Origin: Nemertoderma westbladi
Lineage: Eukaryota; Animalia; Xenacoelomorpha
Length of the DNA: 57,218 bases
Reading direction: 5' to 3'
NCBI GenBank assembly: GCA_032718475.1
Contig: JAUCBJ010005185.1
Location: 1-57,218, forward strand
Part shown: positions 1 to 16,750 of the stretch, piece after piece
How positions within the stretch are numbered: the first letter of the stretch is position 1
How the letters are laid out: each line of letters begins with the position of its first letter
Program-made: the position numbers and the translations under genes
Notes under the pieces: model-generated
What the model was told of the DNA's origin: nothing
Database searches by the model: none
What the model saw: the letters and a program-made list of their open reading frames with translations, nothing else

Positions 1-1349
1 CATAACGCGGGTTACATATTTTTCGATTTCTTAATTAATGAATGTGCCAATATCGATGGGGGGCACGGGAACAAAAAATTTGGGCACATTTAATAAACTG
101 GGGGCGATTTACGGGCGAAACTTGGGGGGACTTACGGGACGCGGGATACATTTCAGATATATAAGGGCCATGGGTGGGGGGTAAAATCAAGCAATACTCT
201 CGGCTGTCAGGGTTGCCTGATAGTTACTATAGGCCTAGACAGCCTCCTTCTACTTCGGTAGTCGGTAACCCACTAGGTCTGGGGACAAGGACTGCCCTTA
301 GCGGTCCCTGGCCATTGGTGGCGACTGAGCCTGAAAAGGACTCGGGCGTTGCTCGATGTGCTAGGGATTTGCGACGGGACCGACAGATCCTAACCGGTTC
401 CCGGTGTGTTGGCTACGACTGAGCCTGAAAAGGACTCAGGCGGAGTTTTTGCATTGGGGACTTGCGAAGGATCGACTGACAGGTCTGGAATGGTTCCTGG
501 TTGTTGGCGACGACTGAGCCTGAAAGGGACTCGGGCGCCATTCGATAAACCGGGGATTTGTGAAGGGCCGATGACCGGACGGAAAGGAAGGGTTCAACGA
601 GGACTGACACCCTGGCGTGGGCTCCACGACTGGCGTTAGTATGAGCCTGAAAAGGACTCAGAAAGCTCCGATGGTTGGGGCTCACAACAGGCAGACAGAC
701 CCTTAGCTAAGCCGTACCGCTTTCCTGTGGACCGATCCCGTTAGGGTTCGGGAAGGGTGGGACGGACATGCGACAGGGTCGAAAGACAGAGGACCGGACT
801 TTCCTGGCATACCAACTATTCGGAGCGGGTTCTCGACTACTAACGTGATTACGAGCCTGAAAAGGACTCGGAAAGCATAGGTAGTTGGGACCCTGCGACG
901 AACCGACAGAAACCCTAGCTAAGCCGCGCCGCTTTCCTAATGACTGACCCATATGGGATCAGAAAGGGTGGAGTGGACAAGCAAAGGATCGACTGACGCT
1001 AACACTACTGTACCGGGACTCAGGACCGAGGGAAAATGGGGAACATTAGTTAGGTCAAAATCTGAAAGTTAAGCGAACAGTGGGGTAATTAAATAATTTA
1101 CTGTAGGAATTTCATATTGTGTATTATTGTGAATATTTGGTATATTGATGTGGGGAAGCCCCAATTATATCTCAATCAGAGTGCAACAGTTCAAACTGTA
1201 GATCAGAGTTCAAAGTTTAGAGTGCAATATTTCAGGTTGCTACTATTAAAGATTAATATCCAACCAATGAAACTCTTTTCTACCCGCAACTCTGCATTTA
1301 AGATCTCCCCCTTCTCCACCCAAACCCCAAACCAAACTCAACCCAAACA
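1..1349 (+). repeat. 5' LTR (first ~21 bp lie outside the window)
   Basis: 1-~1320 aligns to 12339-~13392. Ends in ...AAACA at 1349, just before the PBS-like sequence. The exact 3' end is less certain because the last ~30 bp do not match the 3' LTR. Confidence 0.85.
327..869 (+). repeat. Cluster of five GAGCCTGAAAAGGACTC hairpin motifs in degenerate ~95-bp and ~210-bp LTR sub-repeats
   Basis: Cores start at 327, 421, 516, 643 and 853. Segments 643-780 and 853-980 are similar to each other. Confidence 0.9.
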
Positions 1350-1359
1350 GTCTAGAACT

Positions 1360-1372
1360 CGTAGTCGGCAGG
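1360..1372 (+). promoter_or_regulatory. Primer binding site, tRNA-Ser-like
   Basis: CGTAGTCGGCAGG is complementary to the 3' end of eukaryotic tRNA-Ser (...CCTGCCGACTACG-CCA) and lies 11 bp after the LTR end. Confidence 0.7.
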
Positions 1373-1399
1373 TCATTAGAAGAGAGTCGTTGGCAGGGA

Positions 1400-1591
1400 A
1401 TGGAAGTATCGATCACACCCATTGATCTAATACAAGTCGAACCAGGAATCTGGCAGATAGAAGTTGAGGTACAGGGAACCAACGTGGGATGATTTAGAAT
1501 CACCTTCCGAGTGGTTCAGGCAGAATACGAGACATACGACGAGCTATTTTATGATATTGCATACCTGGCGATATATGAAGCTCTAGAATGA
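1400..1591 (+). pseudogene. Small upstream ORF (~63 codons, one internal TGA) overlapping the gag ATG
   Basis: Hand translation: MEVSITPIDLIQVEPGIWQIEVEVQGTNVG*FRITFRVVQAEYETYDELFYDIAYLAIYEALE*. The stop and the next start overlap as ATGA at 1588-1591. Confidence 0.4.
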
Positions 1592-3850
1592 TAGAGGAGA
1601 ACGCCTACGATACTGAAGGAATAGACCCTCATACAGACTCAGAAACCAACGAGGTCCCGAATGTAAAGAACATGGCAGGTCGGTTGGGTGCTCTCAAGGG
1701 CGGGGTTACTCGGGCCTATAACCACATCGAGAAACAGCTAAAAGGAGTCGAGGCCCCCCTCAGTGATATACAAACTCAGCTCCAGAAGATCAGGAATACT
1801 CTCCACCGATATGAACGGATGTTGCAATCGTACCAGGAGCTCCTTTCCATTAACCGATGAAGAGAACTACCCCAGGATGGAAGAACACACCACCCACTTG
1901 GAAGAGTTCCATAAACAACATCGAAGGACCCTCAGCCTCGTGAGAGGTTATGAGGAACATTTTTATCAGAGGATCGAAAAGGCGGATGTGGAATCAGTGC
2001 GGACCTCCGGTACCAGGACATTGGTTCCAAGAAAAAGGACTGGGTCCTCGAGGCACGCGCACTCCAGCGCCAGGAGCAAGGTATCTTCAACAATGTGTAG
2101 CTCCCAAGGGGGCCAGCTCCTCCGGGACCAGTTACAGGAACAGAGAGCAAGGGCCATTAAAGCCCGGATGGAAGATGAATTCACTCAATTACAGATCAAA
2201 CAGGATATATTGGTGGAAGGAAGGCGTAAACAGGAGGCCGAACAGCAGGCCGAAATGCGTAAACAGGAGGCCGAAATGCGTCAACAAGATACCGAGGCCC
2301 ATAGACTTCTTATCCACAAAAAGAACGCGGATATTGCTAAACTTGCTGAATATGAGGCCGCACTCATCGAACGAGAACTTCAACTGTGCGAGGACTGGGA
2401 GAAGGGTATAGCACAGGACTATGAACCTGTCCCGGTTCTGGAGCTAGAGAAGTCGTTCACACCACTGGCAGTAAACCCTCCGAAACCCGAATTCCCGCCG
2501 GTCATGCGGTCTAAACTGTCGGCGCAAGCACCGGTTTTCTACCCCCCGCCGGTTACTCTTAAGAATGAGGAACCCGAAGCGACACATGACAGCCTTCGGT
2601 ACGAGCATGAAAAGGACTCGGGAAAAGGTCTCTCATTACCGGAACCTTATTTCACTTCCAATCCTACAGCACCGAGTGTTCACAAGTATGAGCCTGAAAA
2701 GGACTCGGAACGTGACACCACCCCTCGATCCACTAACTCATTTACGTCTACTCCGAAGCTCCGTAACTGCGTCGTTATTAAAACTCCCCCTCTTGCCGAT
2801 CCATCATATGTGGGAGAAAGCGTTAGTAATTACGGACCTCCTAGTCATTCCGGTTCAGACGACATTGGCATCATACGAGCCCTGGAGAATGGTCTGGCTA
2901 TGCTTAAGATGGAAATACGTACCTTCGAGGGCGACCCCATTGAATACCTTGGGTTTAAAAAACGGTTTTTTGCTCAAATCGGATCGACGGACATTACCAA
3001 CGCGCAAAAGCTGGTATATTTGTCCCAGTATCTTGGCGACAAACCACGCCGCATTGTGAGATGTTTTGAAGGAGGATCCCACGAGGCATACCACGATGCA
3101 TGGAAAACGCTCAATAAAAGATATGGCAACGTCGGAACCATAATTAATAAGACGCCTGGATCTCTAGGGGATCCACAGAATATTCAAGAGTTTTCAGACT
3201 CAATGAAAGATGCTTATTATACTCTAAAACCATTGAATAAGGAAGAACAGGTGAATAATATCTTAAATCTCCGACAAATCGCCCAGAAATTTCCTGGATG
3301 GCTATATAGTAAATGGGCATACAAATGTGTGGACCTCCGGCGAAGACATCCGGATCGTGATCCTAGCTTTCTCGAAATGTCGGCATTCCTAGACGATATA
3401 TCAGAGGCCATGAATGACTCAATGTTTTCTAAACAAAGTCTCTCCAAAATGGATGGGATGGAGAGCACTTCTCGGAGCAGGGCACCCGCTCCAAAACCAA
3501 GATTCCGCCCTCCCCCTGTGAGTACGATGGCCATTACCATGGCCGAGGAGTCGGACGATGAGGATTACAAGGAACCAACATCAGCAGAAGAATGGGCATG
3601 CTATTTGGAAAATTGGGCGCCCGAGAGGGAAGGAACAATGGCCTCCCTTATGTGTCTCTTCTGCAGGGATAAGCATAAGCTTGAATTCTGCAGGAAGTTC
3701 CAGTTTGCAGAACTAGTCTCTCACTTTGAAGCGATAATGAAACACCGAGGATGCTTCCGGTGTCTTGGAACAGGTCACTACGTAAGGGAGTGCAAACTGA
3801 GGTCCTGATATGCGGTTTGTAATGATTACGACACCACACGCTCCTCCACA
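1588..3850 (+). pseudogene. gag: BEL/Pao Gag (coiled coil, DUF1759-like core, three zinc knuckles), frameshifted
   Basis: ORFs 1588-1860 and 1763-3808. Motifs TFEGDPIEY, KLVYLSQYL, AWKTLNKRYG; knuckles CLFCRDKHKLEFC, CFRCLGTGHYVREC and a frameshifted CAVC...HHTLLH. Confidence 0.9.
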
Positions 3851-4039
3851 TTCCTGCAAACTTCGACTTTACTACATTACCATTCCGTATTGAATCTAAG
3901 CGGAAAGGGGAAACTAACCATGTCTCAAAGGGCTCTCGGACGATCCAGCGGAAAGAAACGAACCCGTTCAAGGCCACTGCTGACATAGCACCTGTGAACA
4001 GTATATCAGCTACTGTCAACCTGATCAATCGGCGGTATA

Positions 4040-4530
4040 TGGTTTTCTCCAAAGTGATACCGGTGAGAATCTAAGGCTTGGGAAATCCCTGACCGCACTT
4101 GCATTCTTGGATAATGGGTCAGACGGGACCATAATTGACAGGGACTTTCTGGAACATCTGGGCCTAGAATATGAACCTTGTAAACGACCCATACAAACTA
4201 TTACGGACCACAAAGATGTGGAATCCGGCGAGGTGCAACTCAGCGTGGAAGGGGTCATGACGGGCTATGAAAGGGTGAAACTGACCATGAAAAACGCCCT
4301 GGTACACACCGATCTCAGAGTGCGATTCCGACAATCCTCCGAATACGCACCCCTTATACAACTGGATCGGAAGGATATGGACCTAAGATGCCTATCACTA
4401 GACGTCCACAGAATCACACTACCTATAGGACTCGATACACCAGAGTTACATATACCTACTGGAGACATTGCACGTTCCATGAAGCTGGACGATGGTTTCT
4501 ACGCAGAGCGCACCATAATGGGATGGATGC
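4040..4530 (+). pseudogene. pol: Aspartic protease domain of pol
   Basis: ALAFLDNGSDGTII active-site motif; downstream LPIGLD and AERTIMGWML motifs are typical of Pao proteases. Confidence 0.85.
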
Positions 4531-4676
4531 TCTGCGGGATTAAGGAAGAAACCACTGATACCTATACATACCTCCCAAAGTGTCAGATTGAAGGAACCAC
4601 AACCTCCATGGGCCACTGGTCAGTGGCAGATACGAATGAAGACCTATTCTTGGAGGCAGAGAAGACCTAACGGGAG

Positions 4677-5690
4677 ATGACAAAATACTTTAACCTGGAA
4701 ACCCAGGAATTCGCCGAAAAGGCTGAAACCCCATCGGAGGAGGACCGATTTAGCGTGGGCATCCTAGACAAGGCAGTATTTAAGGACGGTCATTGGTGCT
4801 CGCCAATGCTATGGAAAGATCCGGACAGACCAATGGCCAACAATGCTAGTATGGCCTTGAGGAGGCTAAAAGGAATCTTGCATAGGTTGCATGAGCTACC
4901 TGAGGTCAAGGAGAAATATAACAATGTGATTAAGGGATACCTTGAAGATGGGTTAGCGGAGATGGTTCCCCAGGACGAATTGCAGGGGACGAAGAGAACC
5001 TACTATCTTCCTACCCACTACGTGGTAGAGGCCCGGAAGGGCAGTAAGATCCGGGTGGTGAATGACGCTGCAGCCACGTATCAAGGTGAGTCGTTGAATA
5101 GTCAGCTATATACCGGACCCAACATACAGCATGCTAATCGGCGTATTGATCCGATTCCGAGAGAACAAAGTGGCTTTCACATGTGACATCAAGGCAATGT
5201 TTCACCAGGTGAGAACTTTACCACGAGACTCTGATTGCCTCCGTATTCTATGGACAGACAAAACATTAACTCCAAGAAATAAACCAACTTACCTTGGCGG
5301 ATGTGGACGCGATGCGGATGATCGTCCATATTTTTGGTGCGAAGGATTCGCCGGTCGTGTATAGCGACATGTTGAAGAAGACTGCGACCATGTGCGAAAG
5401 TGAGTTCCATCCGACTGTCATCGAGACCATCCGGAGATGTTTCTATGTGGACGACGGATGTGCGGGTGCCGAGAATGTCGAAGAAGCATACCGGCTCGCA
5501 ATCGGAATGGTGGAATGTTTAAAGAGGGGAGGTTTCCCCCTAGTAAAGTTTAGATCGGATAATAAAGAGCTTATGGAAAGGCTCCCGGAAGATATCAAAT
5601 TAGATAATGATAAAATGTACTCCGACGGAATAGACCACCGTGTACTCGGCATTGAATGGGACATAAAAATGGACCAGTTCATCTTCAAAC
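4677..5690 (+). pseudogene. pol: Reverse transcriptase domain of pol, frameshifted
   Basis: [33 protein letters not shown]...[21 protein letters not shown] (5441-5455) and VLGIEWD, spread across three frames. Confidence 0.95.
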
Positions 5691-5755
5691 ACAACCCCCT
5701 ACCTAAACCAATGACAAAGAACCCCTCTTTGTCATTGGTTTGGGTAGGGGGGTGT
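5691..5755. repeat. Fold-back inverted duplication disrupting pol
   Basis: 5695-5720 is the reverse complement of 5726-5751 (one T/G mismatch), with a 5-nt spacer. Confidence 0.9.
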
Positions 5756-5779
5756 CATTGGTCTATTCGTGAAGAGTGC

Positions 5780-6470
5780 CATCTTTGACCCTTTGAATTT
5801 CATATCCCCGGTAACGTTAGCCGGGATGAATCTAATTAAGGAAATGTGGATCGAAGGACTGGGGTGCGATGAAGAACTCCCCCCACACCTAATCGTCAAA
5901 TGGAAGAGGTGAACTGAGCAGCTTGAACAGCTCCATCTCAGGCGAATTCCTCGACCGTTTTTTCTCGATAAACTGCCCACTGACATATTCCAGCTCCATA
6001 CCTTCTTGGATGCCTCGAATACTGGAATCGGAGTGGTTATGTACATCCGGAGGATAAGCCAAGATGGAAACGGTGATGTTAGCTTCTTGTTCTCTAAAGC
6101 GAAGAAGGTATCCGGGGAATTCGTGGCAACCATACCGAGGCCCGAGCTGCAGGCCACAGTCTGGGCCGTAAGACAAAACCGCATGATTATGCGAAACCTG
6201 AGGATCCCCATTGAATCTCAACATTTCAGGGTCGATTCCAGCATAGTGCTCTACTACCTCCATTCACCATCACGACGACACACAACGTTCGTGGCAAACT
6301 GTGCCACAGAGATAAAGCAGTGCACTAATCACGAACAGTGGCGTCACGTAAACGGGAAAGAGAACCCGGCAGACTTATCGAGTCGAGGCGCCACCCCACG
6401 ACAGATCGGTAAAAGTAAACTCTGGCTTGCGGGTCCGGAGTTCTTGAGACATCCGCAATGGACCTGGAGC
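5780..6470 (+). pseudogene. pol: Pao-type RNase H region of pol
   Basis: IFDPL, LHTFLDASNTGIG, TIPRPELQA, FRVDSSIVL, WRHVNGKENPADLSSRG, LWLAGPEFL. Confidence 0.9.
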
Positions 6471-6889
6471 ACCAGGTTTGATCCCGGATTAGAAAGCGGG
6501 AAATACTTGGAGGACGATAAGGAAATCCGCAAGGTCCGTGGGAGCGCCGCCGTGGAGATTTATAGTTGCCTGACTGAGCCTGCAAGTGTCTCGGGCAGGC
6601 ACTATAAGGTCGCAACCACCAAACAACCGGCCGCCTCCTTACGACTCCTCATAGAGCGGACCCCCTCGATGAAACGTCTCATTCATCACGTCATGACGCT
6701 CCGGAATTTCGTGCGGTGGAAGGATAACAAACTGATAGTTCAGCGGAGTGTGCAAGAACTCATTATCGCAGAAAAATGTATTGTAAGATATGTTCAGAAG
6801 GAAAGTTTCCCTGATGAGTGGGAACAGCTCAATGCGGGCAAGACTTTGAAACCAGATAGCCCGGTCTACCAGTTGAGACCCATGTTGGG

Positions 6890-8183
6890 AGAGGACGGAT
6901 TGATCCGCCTTAATACCCAGATGGTGAATGCCAAGGTTGAATATGAAATAAAATATCCGGCGCTCTTACCAGGAACTTCGACATTAGCTAAGCTGCTTGT
7001 TCGACAATGCCATGAAGAGAATTATCACGCGGGCTAAAACTGGATCATGGCCAATATACGTCCACGATACTGGATCACCCATATCCAGCCGCTAATTCAG
7101 AAAGTATTGAAATGGTGCTTCCCTTGTAGGAGATATCTGTCACCACCACTCACCCAAAGAATGGCCGATTTACTGGCCACACGACTCCAATCCGACTCGC
7201 CGCCGTTCTACGTAACTGGCGTAGACTGCTTCGGGCCATTTACAGTCATACAGCGACGATCAAACATTAAATGTTGGGGGGCCATCTTCACATGTCTACG
7301 GCCAAGGGTGAACTACCTGGATCTTGTAGTGAATCTCACTCAGCACGCATTTATCAACGCCCTGCGTCGGTTTGTGGCGAATAATGGTTGGTGCCGGCAC
7401 ATATACTCGGACAATGGAACAAACTTCGTGGGAGGAGAAAGGGAATTAAGAGAGGCTATAGACGGATGGTTCACTAACGAAACCGCGTCACACGTCTGGA
7501 AGGAGCACCACATCCAGTGGCACTTCCAGACACCCTTAGCACCCCATACGAGCGGGGTATGGGAAAAGCACATTGACTTGGTTAAACGGTCCATGCGTAT
7601 CGCGTTAGGGGATACCCGGGTTACTCACAATACCTTACGCACCACATTCTGTGAGATCACGGCTACCCTAAACAACCGCCCAATAGTCCCCATATGTGAC
7701 GACCCTACCAATCTGGAGCCCCTCACCCCCAACCATCGCCTTGGTAGACCCAAGACTCACATACTCCCGGGGGCCATGTTCCCGGATCCCAAAGACACCA
7801 CGAAACATGCAAGTTGGAAGAAAGCCCAAGCGCTGGCAGCGCATTGGTAGAGAATTTGGGCACAGGAGTATCTTATAATGCTTCGAACAAGGAGGAAATG
7901 GAATAACACGTACCGGAATATAGCAGTTGGCAACATGGTACTCGTCAAAGAAGACCTTAAAGACCGCGTTCACTGGCCTGTGGCATGTGTTGTGGAAATA
8001 TTCCCTATCAAAGATGGACTTGCGAGAACGGTGACAATACGAATGGCAAAGGGCCACTACCAACGCCCTATCCAGAGGTTTTGCCTTCTTGAAGGCAATG
8101 ACAGCGGTGAGTCCACAAGAGGTGATACGTTCCCTACTCTGGATCCTGCTGCGGACATTGGTGACAATAACAAACCCGTTTAA
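6890..8183 (+). pseudogene. pol: Integrase (HHCC, DDE core, C-terminal DUF5641-like region), with internal stops
   Basis: CHEENYHAG...CFPC, GVDCFGPF, IYSDNGTNFVG, GVWE, LNNRP, LTPNH, WPVACVVEIFPIKDGLARTV. Confidence 0.95.
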
Positions 8184-8440
8184 CCCTTCCCATCCTGTTG
8201 ACAAACTCTTTAAATGTGACTTACCGACAATGATTATGGACCCCCCTTAAACCAACTGTAACCACGCATGGTATTTGTGTTTCCTTGTGTGTTATGTGGA
8301 GTCCAGCGTCACCCTGCAGATGTTTCGACTGATGCAGGGTAGTTTTTGTTTTGTTCACCCTGATTTTGGTCATCAGGACCAACTACCATGGATTATCGGA
8401 AATGGGAAAGTTTCGAAGTGGAATTCATTGTATCCATTGC

Positions 8441-9195
8441 GTTATTCTGGTGGGTCCCTTGTGCATTCCACATGACTTCGTCGATAGAGACTTTATGTTC
8501 CTCAGCCACGTTAATCTGGTGGGTCCCTGGTGCATTCCACCTGACTTCGTTGGCTAGCTTTATGTTTCTGGGAGTGTTATTCTGGTGGGTCCCTGGTGCA
8601 TTCCACCTGACTTCACTTCCAGCGTTCTATTCATCATCCGTTATGTGTGCAGTTTGGGGCGTAGGCGGTATAACGAGTCCAGCTGTAGATCCCAGACTGC
8701 CGCGTAACACCCCTTCCACAACGAAGAATTCCCAAGAAGATGGTCGAAAGTAGTACGAAATGATGAAAGGAAACAGATAACTCTACTATAAACTGAATGA
8801 TGACGCTACTATTATGATGATGATAATGTGAAAATGCGCATCCCTGGTGTCTTGCACTTATAACTGAATGGTGGCACGTAATATTATGATAATGTGATAA
8901 TGCGCATCCCTGGTGTCTTGCACTTATAACCCAATAATGATAGCCGGGGGGCTATAAACCCAATGAAATGATGAAATAAATGATGAAATGATGAAATAAA
9001 TGATGAAATGTGAAATAAATGATGAAATGCTAGTGTGAAATAAATGAAATGAAATGAAATTTGAAATGAATAAACTGTATAAATGAAAAAGAAAAAAAAA
9101 AGGTATAAAATGTAGAAAAGAAAAAGAAGAAATAAAATGGGATAAAAAAGTTAAAAAAGAAATGGTCATAAAAAGTAAAAAACAAGAAAAAACTG
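8441..9195 (+). repeat. Repeat-rich spacer between pol and the extra ORF
   Basis: Three copies of GTTATTCTGGTGGGTCCCTGGTGCATTCCACCTGACTTC (8441, 8510, 8576). Two ~68-bp copies ending ATGCGCATCCCTGGTGTCTTGCACTTATAAC (~8790-8930). A TGAAA/TGA run (8963-9070) and an A-rich tract follow. Confidence 0.85.
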
Positions 9196-9388
9196 GTTGG
9201 GTAATAATGGATTGCTATAGTAACTGTGAATGTTGAACTTAGCGTCAATCAGATGACAGATACCTATACAGCAGTATAATATCACCTATATTAAATAACA
9301 GAAGAAAAAATTCTGCAGTTACTATAGAATTCAGACTATCTAGATTTATAATTAACTGAATTAATTTGTAACGGACGTAATTTACAAT

Positions 9389-12023
9389 ATGGACCAGAAT
9401 CGCCAGATTTTCAGCAAATTACCTACAACAATCGATTTATTGGACTATCCACAACCTGGATCTCCTAGTTTTGATGTGAAATGGAACGCCCTGTTGAATG
9501 AGAATGTGCAAGTCATTCGTTTCTCTGGGAGGGAGGCCCCGGATACCCGTAACTTGCAGGCGCTCCGGTTGACTGACGCTAGTACAAGCCTGAAAAGGAC
9601 TCGGAACGCTGAGGCAACCGGAGGAGGAAAGTTGTCATTCTGGAATACGTTCCGGCGAAGCATTTACAAATCCCGGTGCTTAATATATGACAACGAGGGC
9701 AATGCGACGCCGACTCTGAAGGCGGTTATAATGGCGCGATGTCAGAGTTTCATCGACGATAAGAGTACATATCTCGCACACTGGGGAAACCTGGCGGAAT
9801 GTACAGAGATGCTGCGAGAGGACCGAATGACAGCCATCCAAAATCAGGATGACTATAAAGAAAAATACGGGACGAAAGAGTACGGTCGGTCGCTAATCGT
9901 TGTACTCGGAACCCTGGACGGGTTGGTAATAGTGTGTCGAATCTTTCCAACACCCCAACAGGAAATACGGACAGCCGGGGTGATCTGGTTACTACCGACA
10001 GTGATCCAGAAGATCCTGTTCGACATTGATATAATCAAAATCGGGTCAGATATAAAAGCGGACCTCCGAAACGACTACATCAACGCTCCATTCGGAAGGA
10101 ACCGTAGAGAGGACATCAGCACGATCAGCCACTTCATCGACACCCAAACCCTGCTGGCCTGGTTACGGGTCACGGATTTTATGGGAGGGTTTAGAGAGGT
10201 GAGACGGACCAAATCCGGTATCGGCTACCTAGCGGTACTAAATGGCGGTTTAGATTTTAAACCACAAAAGTTCCCGGACTACAATAAAATCTACGACTTG
10301 CATCTGGATTTAGCGATACGTCATGAGTGGGAAAACCGTTGGAGGGATGTAGAAAGGAAATGGACGATCCACCAACGCTGGAATAATCCGGAGTGACGGA
10401 ACTACATCTATGTAACGATGGAGTCGTACAGGGTCACTAAGTTTATCTGCAATACCCTCAATAAGCTTATTAGCGCAGTCCGAAACGCTTTCATAGATTA
10501 TGAATGGAACGAGGTGATCGAGCAAGCATTCAAGGCGGTACAGAATATCCCACCAGGGGATACCAAGACGCTTGAAATAATCGAGGCCTGGGATCTGAAT
10601 GGACCGTTCGATATCCCAACGATCAACGACCGCCTTGGCGCCGAGGAACCTATAGTGTCGTCGGAAGGAGAGGAGCTATGGAAACACGAAGGTGTCCTGT
10701 TATCCACACCGAAATGCCAACACGAACCAGAAGTTACCTATGGATCAGCTGCTAAGTGGATAGCCACGACTGAGCCTGTGATGGACTCGGGCGTAGCTAC
10801 TCTGCTTGGCTCGGGTAGTACGGCGAGGGAATTGGTTACCACTCTCGCGCTCAGCGACTTCGATTATACATGCAGGGTGTTATCTCCTTACCCGTTCCCT
10901 GGAGGAGATGACTGGTCCACGGAAACTCCGAGCACCAGTACCCAGTGGACCCGGTCGGCAATCCAAGTGACGAAGGGACCTAGTATACCACCGACCCCCG
11001 GGAACCTCCTCAGGATTACTTCGGCGAATGTTCCGGCATCCTTTCGCCAACCAGCTATTCCACATGACCCGATGAGGTTCACCTGATGGTACGCTGAACA
11101 GATGGAGTGGATTCACCGTCAGAAATGGGCACCCGAAATGCATCCAGCGGACCATAAGGAGGGATACCGCAGCGAGGCCCAACTCCACGACAGCGCGGCG
11201 TACCGCGGGCTTCCTATAATAACAATTATTCCCAAGAAGGATAAACGGTTGGAATATTACACTGGCGTGCAAATTCCAATCTTCTTCGGTCAAGAAATGA
11301 AACTCGATGTCTGCAGTAGTTGTGGTTCGGAAGGAACAGTGTCCTCGAGGTAAGAAACAAAGAGTAACCGAGCCCTGTTTCCAAATCCTCGGGATAGTAT
11401 ATTGCCCATATTGCGCCATCCCGGGCCATGATGTATCGGTTTGCCCAACATCGTACAATGTATGTACAACATGCGGATTCCGTGGGCATACGGCGAGCCC
11501 TCGGTGCAATATTAAATGTCCTTCTAAGGATGTTACAGCTACTGGGAACATGGTAATGTTCGAGACGTACACCAATGTCCACATAAAGACCAGAGTGCGA
11601 TTGAGCGATCGAAATGTTGCACAGGAGATGGCGTGCGGGTATTTCTCATTCCCCGAACGTCTCCATATGGGAGAGGCTTTACCCTTCCACTACGTGGATC
11701 TCCTACTTATCGCCAATCTATTCGGTCCATTCGAGGTGATTAGGCGTCTATACTCGTATACGGAAGCGTTTGGAGATGGAGAATGGTTCCAGACAGCTCG
11801 AGCCACCGAGCTAGAAAGGAGAACGGATCTCATCACGATACCTCAATGAGGAATGGCTGCCAGGAGGCAGGCGGCGGCGCTTCTCGCATCAGCCAATGAC
11901 GCCCCACTACCCGCATTGGCGTTAAACGAAAGTCGATGGGCGAAGAAAAGGAAAGCATATCAAAGTAGGAGATTAAACGATAAAACAAAGGAAGGACTGT
12001 CAGACACAGGTATGAAAAAATAG
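9389..12023 (+). pseudogene. Accessory ORF: DEDDy/WRN-Mut7-EXD-like 3'-5' exonuclease-fold domain plus CCHC zinc knuckles
   Basis: ORFs starting at 9389, 10418 and 11102 share one frame and are separated only by TGA stops. One frameshift near 11335 leads to ORF 11307-11849, and the frame stays open past another TGA. Motifs LPTVIQKILFDIDIIKIGSDIKADL, FIDTQTL, GIGYLA, CPYCAIPGHDVSVC, CTTCGFRGHTASPRC. Confidence 0.7.
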
Positions 12024-12084
12024 TAGGTAATTATATTTTTTCATACCTGTGGCTGACAGTCCTTCCTTTGTTTTATCGTTTAAT
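11972..12084. repeat. Inverted repeat with 51-bp arms and an 11-nt loop
   Basis: 11972-12022 is the reverse complement of 12034-12084 with one mismatch. AAAGTAGGAGAT direct repeats lie at 11962 and 12122. Confidence 0.92.
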
Positions 12085-12309
12085 ATTTACTCGCCACATT
12101 CCCCAACATGAATTTTAATTTAAAGTAGGAGATGAAAGACCATGACATTTATAGACATTTATTCAAACATTATATTTTATATATATATGTACGTAAACTG
12201 ACTCTAGGACAAATTAATCATGGACTATGCAATAACACAAAATTAGTTTTGTATGGGGAAATGACCTTACGCAAACTCGATCTACCGATAGACCTCACGA
12301 AGGTCATTT

Positions 12310-12317
12310 GGGGGGAC
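12310..12317 (+). promoter_or_regulatory. Polypurine tract
   Basis: GGGGGGA(C) lies immediately before the TGTT start of the 3' LTR. Confidence 0.65.
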
Positions 12318-13486
12318 TGTTCGCGTTATTTTAATTATCATAATGCGAGTTACATATTTTTCGATTTCTTATTTTATGAATGTGCCAATATCGATGGGGG
12401 GCATGGGAACAAAAAATTGGGCACATTTAATAAACTGGGGGTGATTTACGGGCGAAACTTGGGGGGACTTATGGGACGCGGGATACATTTCAGATATTTA
12501 AGGGCCATGGGTGGGGGGTAAAATCAAGCAATACTCTCGGCTGTCAGGGTTGCTGATAGTTACTTTAGACCTAGACAACGCTAGCCTGAAACGGACTCGG
12601 GCGCCGTTCGATAAACCGGGGATTTGTGAAGGGCCGATGACCAGATGGAAAGGAAGGGTTCAACGAGGACTGACTTCCTGGCGTGGGCTCCATGACTGGC
12701 GTTAGTACGAGCCTGAAAAGGACTCGGAAAGCTCCGATGGTTGGGGCTCACAATGGGCTGACAGACCCTTAGCTAAGCCGTACCGCTTTCCTGAGGACTG
12801 ATCCTGTTAGGGTTCGGGAAGGGTGGGACGGACATGCGATAGGGTCGAAAGACAGAGGACCGAACTTTACTGGCATACCGACTATTCGGAGCGGGTTCTC
12901 GACTACTAACGTGATTACGAGCCTGAAAAGGACTTGGAAAGCATAGGTAGTTGGGACCCTGCGACGAACCGACAGAATCCCTAGCTAAGCTGTGCCGCTT
13001 TCCTAATGACTGAACCGTATGGGATCAGGAAGGGTGGAGCGGGCAAAGGATCGACCGACGCTGACACTACTGTACCGGGACTAGTACCGAGGGAAAATTG
13101 GAAACATTAGTTAGGTCAAAATCTGAAAGTTAAGCGAACAGTGGGGTAATTAAATAATTTACTGTAGGAATTTCATATTGTGTATTATTGTGAATATTTG
13201 GTATATTGGTGTGGGGAAGCCCAAATTATTCTCAATCAGAGTGCAACAGAGTGTAACAGAGTTCCAACTGCAGATCAGAGTTCAAAGTTTAGAGTGCAAT
13301 ATTTCAGGTTACTACTATTAAAGATTAATATCCAACCAATGAAACTCTTTTCTACCCGCAACTCTGCATTAAAGATAACGTCCTTCTCCACTCCCAATAA
13401 CCAGTGACTGGCCGGAATATAGTGGTCTGAAAGTTCCGCCTCCAGCATTGGCGTTTTCCCCCCTGGTGTCGGGAATAACGGCAACA
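12318..13486 (+). repeat. 3' LTR
   Basis: Starts TGTTCGCGTTATT and ends AATAACGGCAACA (11/13 terminal inverted match). The body aligns with the 5' LTR, and (TAT)n flank follows. Confidence 0.88.
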
Positions 13487-14394
13487 ATTATTATTATTAT
13501 TATATACTATTATTATATATCAAATTTTATCTAGCATCTCCTTAACTATATATCATGCATGCTAATACTAAATATTAAGTGCATAGGTGGTGGTTGTCTG
13601 TAGAATGTGTGTTGCTTCTACCTACTGTACAGTAGGAAGTGCAGGGTTGGATCCCATGCCAAGCCACTTACGATTTCATAACTGTTTCACCAACCCAGGG
13701 ATATGGGAGGGCACCCGAAAGTGTTTGACATTTTTCAACCTTGGGAGTTAGTGTGGCGCTCTCCCTACCTACAGGTATCAGCCGAGAGAAGATAATTCGG
13801 GGTACCTCCGATGATGGTGTTTAATGTTCTACTTTCACTTTACGAAATATTCAGAAGTAAGTCATGGACAGCTCGAAAGTTTGACTGCGAAACTTTAGGA
13901 AGATTGTGGAGAACGATTGGAATTCCATCAGCCTTATATAAAATAAAATTCATATTTAGAGCCCTAACTAGGACGCAAACGGTAGTCATAGGAACACATT
14001 ATAGGAAGCTGCTACGTAGACTACTCTGTGTGGGAAATTATGTGGGTAACAATCGGCTCTACGGCTTAATGGGATGCAGCTACATTGCCGATGAGGCATA
14101 CAAGTCTATAGTAGGGGCCGGCCATCATACGATTAGAAACGTGTCCTAATGATTTATGGCAAACTGGACTCGGTTATGCCCTATTATACAATAAACAAGA
14201 CACGGCACACATTGTCCTTGGCAGCACCTATCACAAAGCCGCAATGGCCTATCCGCTTCCTATTCTCCACTCGCTACAAACGTATACTTATGTAGCACAC
14301 AGCGTGCTCTCACGTATAAAACCAAGGGAACTAAAATTAAGTGAGAAAAATGATGCTAGCTTTATTGCAAACTGTTACAAAATGGCAATACCCT

Positions 14395-14497
14395 TAATAA
14401 TAATAATAATAATAATAATATTGGTTATTTATATAGCGCTTTTCTACGCTCAGCATACTCAAAGCGCTTTTATTATCATTACCCCAGCAAAGCTGCG
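14395..14497 (-). mobile_element. 3' tail fragment of an L2-type LINE or an L2-tailed SINE
   Basis: The minus strand reads AAAGCGCTTTGAG...AAAAGCGCTATATAAAT followed by (TTA)n, a typical L2-family 3' end. Confidence 0.55.
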
Positions 14498-14563
14498 ATA
14501 AACACAAATATATCCTTGACTATTTTTGAATCATATAATCTAACAAACTACTATTTAAACATT

Positions 14564-14707
14564 GCCTCCGTGGTGTAGTGGTTAGCATGCATACCTGAAC
14601 GTTTATCGGGAGACGCGGGTTCAATCCCCGCTGGTGGAGAATTCATTTTTTCCGCTCCATTTGCTATAGAGTTGGATCATCCTTAGTCCTGTTTAATTAC
14701 TTATTAA
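14564..14707 (+). mobile_element. Short tRNA-derived SINE
   Basis: A-box TGGTGTAGTGG and B-box GGTTCAATCC. Perfect 14-bp TSD ACTATTTAAACATT at 14550-14563 and 14708-14721. Confidence 0.8.
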
Positions 14708-15258
14708 ACTATTTAAACATTATTATAAAATTTATAGCTAACTTAACCAGATCTAATAATATCGTGCAATTGATTAATTTGTTAAGGCAATATGTATTGT
14801 AATATGTATTGTGTTGAGGTTAACACGTTTAACCCCACATATTGATTCATTGCGGTTATTCCTGATTACAAATCAGCAATGTCTTTGATTTCTTTTGATA
14901 TGTTGGATCTGAATGGCCGTTGGCCTACTTTTATTTTGTGCATAACTGATTAAAATAGTTTTAACAAACGTATTCGTGTAACATAGGTTACATTTAGTGT
15001 AATACTAGTACCTACGAGGTAATTTATAGCCGGACTATTATATAAGTTCTAAGTCTTAACGTTCTATGGTCACGATATGTGTATAACTCTTATCTGTGGA
15101 CAGTGTTTCTGGTTTTTTTAATGTTTTATCTGCCAATTTTACATGAATAAATGCCGGCTCGATTCCTCGATTAATTCCGGTTCGTTAATAGATAGACTTT
15201 ACAAATACAGACACAGACTCCGTGTAAATTTAACCTTTAATATTTAGATAATGCTTAC

Positions 15259-15433
15259 CAGGATCCGTTCTCTTCTTCACTTCTACATTTTCTGAATTGT
15301 CATCATTAGCAGAAATAACTACAGACATGACCCCCAGTAGGGCTGCAAATAATATGCATAATGGCACATTCGCCCTGTAACTGGACCTATACCTAGGCGA
15401 CATAGAGCCAACATTCGCCCTGTAACTGGACAT
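15259..15433 (-). CDS. Candidate first coding exon of a secreted or membrane host protein
   Basis: Reads M...RANVPLCILFAALLGVMSVVISA-NDDNSENVEVKKRTDP, a signal-peptide-like sequence, and ends at a G|GTAAGC donor at 15258. No further exons were identified. Confidence 0.4.
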
Positions 15434-16750
15434 ATTATTAGGCGATATAAAGCCAACTCTACTGCTCGCGACCACATATGTTGGTGTTTTCCCAGCTAGT
15501 AGTGTCAGATTTAACTCAGGTAAAGGAAACAAATTTAAATTTAAATGAATTACATAAATTATATTAAATTATGTTGTCTATTTGTTGCAATGTCCTGTGT
15601 TCTACAATATTACCATAATAATATATATCGCTGTAAGTACATAGGTTATGTTATAAATGTTAATGTGCGAGAGAGGGGAACATGCAATGAAGATATGGAT
15701 TTTACCACATGAGATATTTCACAACATCACCCTTAAGTTGATTCACTACAATGCAATAAAGGTTATATTTATATATAACTAAGCATATACCATATATACT
15801 ATATAACAGCAACTAAGGGATTATTTTATATCTTACACGTGGCAAATTTCGATTACTGTAGAGATGCCCCTCCATATGTTATGTTATCAAGGTATCATGA
15901 CTTGTGGCACTGTTAATTAATGCAGTTATTAAATGTACTGTAGTGTATGTACAGTAGTTAGAGTTAAAGACGAGATCATACCAGGTCTAATTTTCTGGCA
16001 ACCAACTCATGGAAAACGTACCCGTGGACGACCGGCTATAACACAGCTATAACATAACTGTACTTGAGAGAAACGAAATTGTGACAACTATGGAGAATCG
16101 GTTTTTAATGTCAAACATGAACTTTGCAGTCTCTAGTTCAAAACGTTTATAAAGTTGTAAAATATTAAGTGATTTATATATAGGTGCCGATCGAAAGTGA
16201 TTGAAAGTGATTGCTAGTATTATTTTGGTTGCTTTTTTTTTAATTGGGCTAGTATAGGAGTTGTAACTGTTTCCCCACAGGACTAGTCCGCACAATAAGT
16301 GTGGGTGGACAAGGGCAAAATATAGTGTTCTTAATATGTAAATTGGTAGAATGTGTCTTAATTTATAAAAGATTCGTGAGAGTTTTGATATTTTTGATAA
16401 ATTATATTCACAATGAATTTTCCAATTAATTTTTTTATCATTAAAAATTCCTAGAAATTTTGAGGCGGTTTTTGTGGCAATAGGGTGATAGTAGATTGTA
16501 TTGTGACCGTGGGGATTGGTGGATGTCGGCTGTTATGGAATAGTACCGTATATACTCAGTCTTCTTTAAATTTACTGAAAGTTTGTTGTCGGTTCATTGA
16601 GTCAGTCTTGTAGTTCAGTGTTAACAGTTTTAATGAGTTTAATAGTATTTTTATCGCAGTAAAGTAGCGTAGTGTCGTCTGCGAATAGCCCTGTGGAGTT
16701 CCACAAGGTGAGTTAGTTGTTCCAGATGTACGGCCGTCAATGGATACTAG

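Follow-up and report, generated by a model that had tools for sequence, protein, structure and literature searches.

MS2/PP7-type operators combine a tetraloop with a single bulged A. Parts of PMC3662417 and PMC6281560 describe, for single-stranded RNA viruses, packaging signals that are dispersed along the genome. Among retroelements, the CERV protein of C. elegans Cer1, the CTE of MPMV and the RRE/Rev pair of HIV exemplify cis-acting structures and accessory ORFs, as set out in PMC10309623. The SPRE of endogenous retroviruses, described in PMC8579622, has a core of 17 nt that is invariant and may extend over coding sequence. Finally, the bdelloid LTR retrotransposons Juno and Vesta carry a DEDDy-type exonuclease as a third ORF according to PMC5408684, and these ORF3s are also cited in a part of PMC6338049.

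The locus described here, found in a window of 57,218 nt (the whole stretch of DNA analysed), resembles these systems in part. Like packaging signals and MS2/PP7 operators, it comprises many short stem-loops, here predicted, along a genomic RNA, and it shares with the operators a tetraloop accompanied by one bulged A. However, their apex is near-invariant rather than degenerate and is carried on long variable stems, and they belong to an LTR retrotransposon, for which binding by Gag or capsid is putative. With the CTE, RRE/Rev and Cer1 CERV, as far as the sections mentioned describe them, it shares the presence of a structured cis-element and an accessory ORF in a retroelement. Those elements are single regions, whereas here one motif stands at ten sites, without sequence match to any of them, and the accessory ORF is exonuclease-like with knuckles. 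The SPRE, too, is found in the RNA of retroelements and has an invariant core of 17 nt, with C-rich flanks, but it has another sequence, lacks a common predicted structure according to its authors, is biased to the 3' end and belongs to mammalian ERVs (PMC8579622, in part); its core was compared by eye with the present motif, differs from it, and was set aside. The motif was also compared with lambda boxB and with the cores of the hammerhead and hairpin ribozymes, all of which were set aside.

The host element is a BEL/Pao retrotransposon, with a Gag containing DUF1759, an aspartic protease, a Peptidase_A17 region (Pao-type RNase H), and an integrase followed by DUF5641. Searches found 28 BEL homologs, at identities of 25-38%, and PF05380 is present in all 28. 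All features given in this text lie on the + strand. The gag open stretch (1742..3808) holds DUF1759 and a weak zinc knuckle, pol (3984..8180) holds the protease, Peptidase_A17/RNase H, integrase and DUF5641, and a broken extra ORF (9389..11849) has an N-terminal part resembling a DEDDy 3'-5' exonuclease and C-terminal Cys/His knuckles. The element is decayed, with stop codons and frame changes in its coding regions, pol included. Two direct LTRs flank gag-pol. The 5' LTR (1..1348), delimited by the LTR-LTR match and by signal words, begins before the window does, which puts the outer ends and the target-site duplication out of view, and its 3' end is approximate; the 3' LTR (12318..13391) starts with TG after a G run, and its 3' end is ill-defined. 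The two match over 1-241 and 12339-12577 (95%) and over 510-1319 and 12578-13391 (92.6%), and the 3' LTR has no equivalent of 242-509. A TATATAA at 158 and an ATTAAA at 1245 suggest a long R region, at approximately 190-1260, which would include the LTR copies of the motif; in HTLV, the Rex element sits in a long R region. No tRNA genes were found in the window. Organism A has many copies of the family, with thousands of contigs mapping at a likeness of at least 80% in three of four public runs.

The original prediction had claimed 13 sense-strand copies of a GNRA-capped, bulged-A hairpin, confined to the element. In a scan of all 57,218 nt, the 17-nt core, at up to 4 mismatches, has 13 matches, all on the + strand and at the positions claimed, and none was found on the − strand or outside the element at this threshold on either strand. 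They lie in the 5' LTR (327..343, 421..437, 516..532, 643..659 and 853..869), in gag (2603..2619 and 2690..2706, the latter with the exact core), in pol (6576..6592), in the extra ORF (9586..9602 and 10772..10788) and in the 3' LTR (starting at 12582, 12709 and 12919), so that the placement within three coding regions is borne out. Chance does not produce such a set. Namely, at up to 3 mismatches there are 12 matches, against a shuffle mean of 0.04 and with 12 or more in none of 100 shuffles, and inside the element, at up to 4 mismatches, there are 13 against a mean of 0.275 and a maximum of 3 in 200 shuffles. A covariance model of the hairpin, as had been proposed, returned all 13: 12 of these were its input and were therefore found by construction, the thirteenth came at E 0.007, and no further match fell below E 1. 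The sequence that is near-invariant across sites is the apical 19 nt of the hairpin, and the loop variants do remain GNRA, with GCAA at 6576 and GUGA at 10772. That said, 13 holds as a number of matches and not as a number of independent sites. In particular, 643 and 853 recur in the 3' LTR as their twins 12709 and 12919, and the counterpart of 516 there is 12582, a junction remnant cut by the deletion that matches 242-509 of the 5' LTR; with LTR duplication accounting for three of the 13, ten distinct sites remain: the LTR holds five, gag and the extra ORF two each, and pol one. The LTR copies 327/421/516 and 643/853 are, in turn, diverged tandem units, approximately 75-77% alike.

What the copies share beyond sequence is a predicted fold. 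Between 190 and 1100, an array of long predicted RNA hairpins, five of them capped by the motif and two with receptor-like loops, has a folding z of −6.68 in sense and −1.74 in antisense (20 shuffles each). The seven intact LTR copies cap predicted hairpins of 25-31 pairs, each with 4-8 G·U pairs. Outside the conserved part, the 5' and 3' arms of one and the same copy form duplexes of −18.5 kcal/mol on average, compared with −12.7 kcal/mol for cross pairs; none of 100,000 permutations was as good as this self-pairing, and for the five non-LTR copies alone 2 of 120 were. For eight of the ten copies, pairing with their own arm comes first or nearly so. The exceptions are the gag copies, for which 14 of 18 and 15 of 18 cross pairings are equally stable; their basal stems are short, and they fold no better than shuffled sequence would lead one to expect (z −0.5 and −1.0). 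In this decayed copy of the element, moreover, the motifs at 2603, 6576 and 10772 have flaws in the apical stem, and at 9586 and 12582 folding prediction does not yield the full core hairpin.

Changes within the stems point the same way. LTR units 4 and 5 have 33 pairs in common, of which 25 are identical, 7 differ at both partners and 1 differs at a single partner; as only pairs that form in both units were taken, the comparison is supportive rather than a formal test of covariation. The seven double changes consist entirely of C-G/U-A transitions, some of which may be due to CpG decay. In type-A stems aligned in a fixed register, on the other hand, there are swaps which CpG decay cannot yield, since G-C, C-G and U-A occur at one and the same position. 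The claim that basal stems differ in sequence while keeping their pairing stands, with the two gag copies as exceptions: the six stems named in it are present, one of them with an internal mismatch, and self-pairing is specific at the level given above. Taken together, the strand-asymmetric folding, the self-specific stems, the double changes, and the in-frame insertion and conservation island in pol described below support the view, also put forward originally, that constraint acts on the structure of the sense-strand nucleic acid. Short sites that recur within an LTR are often enhancers, and one could for this reason imagine that the motif acts in DNA instead, as an enhancer-type protein site or as a single-strand hairpin. 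With the motif present in a single orientation, with G·U-rich stems and RNA-type internal loops, and with its copies downstream of the TATA-like word, we consider such a role most improbable.

Beneath the core, two conserved sub-types can be distinguished, both of them predicted non-canonical folds. In sub-type A (327, 421, 516, 6576 and 10772), two pairs, an invariant A·G and one G-C follow below the core; at 327, for instance, GACU faces GGGC with the A·G pair between them. The folding z is −6.3 at 327, −4.5 at 421, −2.7 at 516 and also −2.7 at 10772, where the basal stem is long. Sub-type B (643, 853, 2603, 2690 and 9586) has an AGUA/GAA internal loop in three of its five members and variants of it in the other two, namely at 853 (AUUA/GAA) and at 2603; the z values are −3.2 at 643 and −6.5 at 853. 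We take the AGUA/GAA loop, as seen at 643, to fit the loop E or bulged-G consensus.

The GNRA caps raise the question of tertiary contacts. Matches to a descriptor of the 11-nt GAAA receptor have a supporting helix in 3 of 22 cases, and these three are the second hairpins of LTR units 4 and 5 and the 3' LTR twin of the former. The internal loops in question are GCUAAG 706-711/CAUGC 767-771 in unit 4 (probability of the C-G pair 0.99), GCUAAG 918-923/CAAGC 978-982 in unit 5 (probability 1.0) and a loop at 12772-12837 in the 3' LTR. The supplement of PMC11381326, in part, gives GAAA binding energies of −11.39 kcal/mol for GCUAAA_CAUGC and −10.32 kcal/mol for GCUAAG_UACGC in a set spanning −11.77 to −8.35 kcal/mol, and our loops are likened to these near variants, their exact forms being absent among the rows compared. 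GNRA caps and a receptor-type internal loop within a helix, here predicted, are what the locus shares with the 11-nt GAAA receptor; tetraloop/receptor pairs and loop E are building blocks and not a family, and the contacts here are predicted only. One can nevertheless envisage that the GAAA caps would dock into the receptor-like loops of the LTR and thereby compact or dimerise the RNA without any protein. While the location of all supported descriptor matches in the second hairpins of these two units and the measured affinity of the near variants would suit such an arrangement, ten caps would have to share two receptors per LTR, the internal caps at 6576 and 10772 are GCAA and GUGA, and the invariant stem and bulge are not needed for docking, which leaves it distinctly unlikely as the explanation of the motif. 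Docking and protein binding could also both hold.

Five of the ten sites lie in coding sequence. The original prediction had argued from different reading frames that the peptide is not what is constrained; four of the five coding copies are, however, in a common frame, and the argument rests on the single copy at 9586. A stronger argument comes from pol. Between two anchors, the linker that joins RNase H and integrase is 78 aa long, as opposed to 43-62 aa (median 52) in all 16 of the BEL proteins that were aligned out of the 28 homologs found, and the excess maps to approximately 6534-6603. This is the hairpin itself (6534..6607), which contains the copy at 6576 and constitutes an in-frame insertion in the linker. 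Given the longer linker and the coincidence of its excess with the hairpin, the pol hairpin is kept at a cost to the protein.

Other family copies agree with this. Contigs mapped to 6530-6640 in three of the four public runs reach a sharp peak over the hairpin of approximately 27,000-52,000, compared with 44-626 at the edges, these values being contig depth summed at 80% likeness rather than copy number, with X1 and X2 coming from one sample and with near-identical records among the contigs that may be the source of the window DNA. The loose ends of these contigs run on into linker codons that are diverged but similar. None of the variants listed for contigs mapped to this region lies in the hairpin loop, and the three departures of the window in the 3' arm of the hairpin are absent from more than 99% of the depth. 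In a 979-nt contig from run X5, 6 of 60 hairpin positions differ, versus approximately 59 of 249 flank positions (the flank figure was obtained by subtraction). We read the pol hairpin as an island of nucleotide-level conservation in other copies of the family.

These data also bear on whether the distribution of the motif could be a neutral by-product of tandem duplication and of template switching by reverse transcriptase at a stable hairpin. The LTR units are indeed tandem duplicates, positions 9570-9610 in the extra ORF are 90% alike to the LTR copy at 12693-12733 over 41 nt, and there are contigs that join one motif site to another, as a shared 20-mer would also do. Such processes account for the spread of the motif and not for its retention: the apex is invariant while the stems diverge and yet pair, and the insertion in pol keeps the frame and is better conserved than the sequence on either side. 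As a complete account, a neutral origin is therefore very unlikely in our view.

The best reading of these observations is that the motif is real and strongly non-random and putatively acts as a cis-acting retroelement RNA signal. The multivalent cis-acting signal of the original prediction is likewise our best inference, with the sense-strand structure supporting it, whereas the count of 13 overstated the number of sites and the frame argument was weak. More specifically, we tentatively propose, at a probability of roughly 45%, that the motif is a multivalent binding site for a zinc-knuckle protein of the element itself, either Gag or the product of the extra ORF, and that it would serve ribonucleoprotein export and packaging. 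The element does encode knuckle proteins, and an invariant apex on variable stems, retained despite insertion into a protein, argues for an apex that is read by a protein at many sites. According to this proposal, one short sequence at ten sites would give the sense RNA a hairpin with a GNRA cap and a bulged A at each of them, of which the near-invariant apical 19 nt would be read by Gag or by the extra ORF product, both with zinc knuckles, and the long variable stems would act as stands presenting the cap. RNA bound in this way would be marked for ribonucleoprotein assembly and then for export and packaging. The copies would have spread by duplication or template switching and would have been retained where protein linkers tolerate insertion, and those in R would be present at both ends of the RNA. 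Any subgenomic RNA would, however, contain the copies of R and of the extra ORF as well, so that selecting full-length RNA for packaging would take more than the motif.

An element-encoded reader is not the only conceivable ligand. A host RNA-binding protein, such as an export, localisation or decay-protection factor, might be recruited by what would then be a multimerised CTE/RTE-type element; the structural evidence is equal for the two, and retroelements do use host NXF1 via RNA structure (PMC10309623, in part). We regard a host factor as unlikely, though a genuine contender, given that no Rfam cis-element matches, that the element has knuckle proteins of its own, and that no result points to a host ligand.

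Rfam 15, run on positions 1-16000, gave 20 weak matches at E ≤5, none over a motif copy and none at the gathering score. A literature search, with thin coverage of subscription journals, of Repbase and of supplementary files on bioRxiv, found no account of a comparable signal in BEL/Pao; the original prediction had not recognised it as described for these elements. A 20-nt motif pattern had 0 loci in viral contigs, where scans for loci related to the element found none either. A looser 17-nt pattern gave 22 loci, and pattern scans of metagenomes gave 9 (4 distinct contexts), with one match each, and the 9 metagenome loci have no tblastx likeness to the element. Of these 31 loci, 16 are matched by the covariance model at 21-27 bits, compared with 41.6-68 for the 12 training copies, and we attribute them to chance. 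The peptide readings of the motif have only short chance matches, with 1 or 2 mismatches, in the 28 distant BEL proteins (25-38% identity). A motif-bearing relative beyond organism A was not found in these collections, which are mostly prokaryotic and viral, so that this absence says little.

Own-RNA selection, export and packaging by LTR retrotransposons are poorly known outside Ty1 and retroviruses, and a hairpin of 19 near-invariant nt, at ten sites, in two sub-types and with loop variants supplied by nature, offers a compact and directly testable bait for a ligand. If the partner is encoded by the element, the two would form an operator/protein pair of natural origin in an animal, and the unexplained DEDDy accessory ORFs of retrotransposons would gain a testable role. 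Specifically, it is possible, although doubtful, that an operator-like hairpin, placed in frame in linkers of all three genes and in an LTR array that has tetraloop receptors of its own, is read by an exonuclease-derived knuckle protein in a Rev-like or silencing-evasion system. If true, this would be a Rev-like or silencing-evasion system in a group of retrotransposons for which the literature searched describes no RNA signal of such kind.

The protein at issue is the product of the extra ORF, whose sequence resembles that of a DEDDy exonuclease and has zinc knuckles. Being a third ORF of this type in an LTR element, here putatively so, it resembles ORF3 of Juno and Vesta; those belong to other lineages, the words 'hairpin' and 'stem-loop' are absent from the main text of PMC5408684, and exonuclease activity is putative in both cases. 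An exonuclease-like protein invites the thought that the units are a self-cleaving or processing RNA of a new type, which may serve that protein as a stop or as a substrate, and the repeated structured units with non-canonical loops would be in keeping with it. We give this a slim chance at best: no ribozyme family of Rfam matched at E ≤5, the genomic RNA would not survive cuts within gag and pol, and the catalytic residues of the extra ORF are putative only, with models at a pLDDT of ~31. Two AlphaFold2 models of it have pLDDT ~31-32, and the ORF of the window has no Pfam or PDB match. By Atlas features it scores 0.92 to a WRN-like 3'-5' exonuclease cluster, with 165 of 256 features and a recognition just below the mark. 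One full-length homolog (P0029), and no further one in a follow-up search, matches it at both ends (E 2.6e-5, with the knuckle region at E 4e-10); this homolog has an Atlas score of 0.94-0.95 and PF01612 at E 0.2 only.

As for the coding capacity of the element beyond pol, the protein search found a single full-length homolog of the extra ORF (window 9389-11849), namely a protein of 648 aa, designated P0029, whose likeness to the product of this frame covers the region resembling an exonuclease as well as the Cys/His knuckles at the C-terminus. A search of the literature found no BEL/Pao report of an accessory gene of this type. The word TATAAAA is seen at 9104, upstream of the extra ORF.

The stretch 3' of pol, at 8101-9000, is non-coding and contains a tandem repeat with a 69-nt unit (8440-8614). 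When contigs from four public sequencing runs were mapped onto the element, their depth peaked in this very stretch in all four, and it is perhaps common to some high-copy derivative. Two inverted repeats should also be mentioned. The first, near-perfect (93%, approximately 110 nt), is located in the interval that separates the extra ORF from the 3' LTR (11972-12084), and its matches to miRNA precursors were all sub-threshold. The second lies within pol (5691-5755), where this copy of the element has probably been rearranged locally.

In the predicted folds of the LTR hairpins, purine-rich internal loops are common to the hairpin bases (286-995), and we take these loops to be tandem GA or UAA/GAN-like. 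These bases also share GACYGAC linkers, which a word search placed at 378, 474, 602, 942, 991 and, within the extra ORF, 9571. Directly 3' of the 5' LTR, positions 1358-1373 may represent a primer-binding site, presumably resembling the complement of a tRNA-Ser 3' end. Gag has a weak match (window 2501-2548; E 0.034, under the curated cut-off) to PAM2, the poly(A)-binding-protein-interacting motif, a short distance upstream of where the GNRA-capped hairpin first occurs in gag. Finally, positions 17367-47741 are occupied by a satellite with a 40-bp unit, present in approximately 750 copies with 93% matches.
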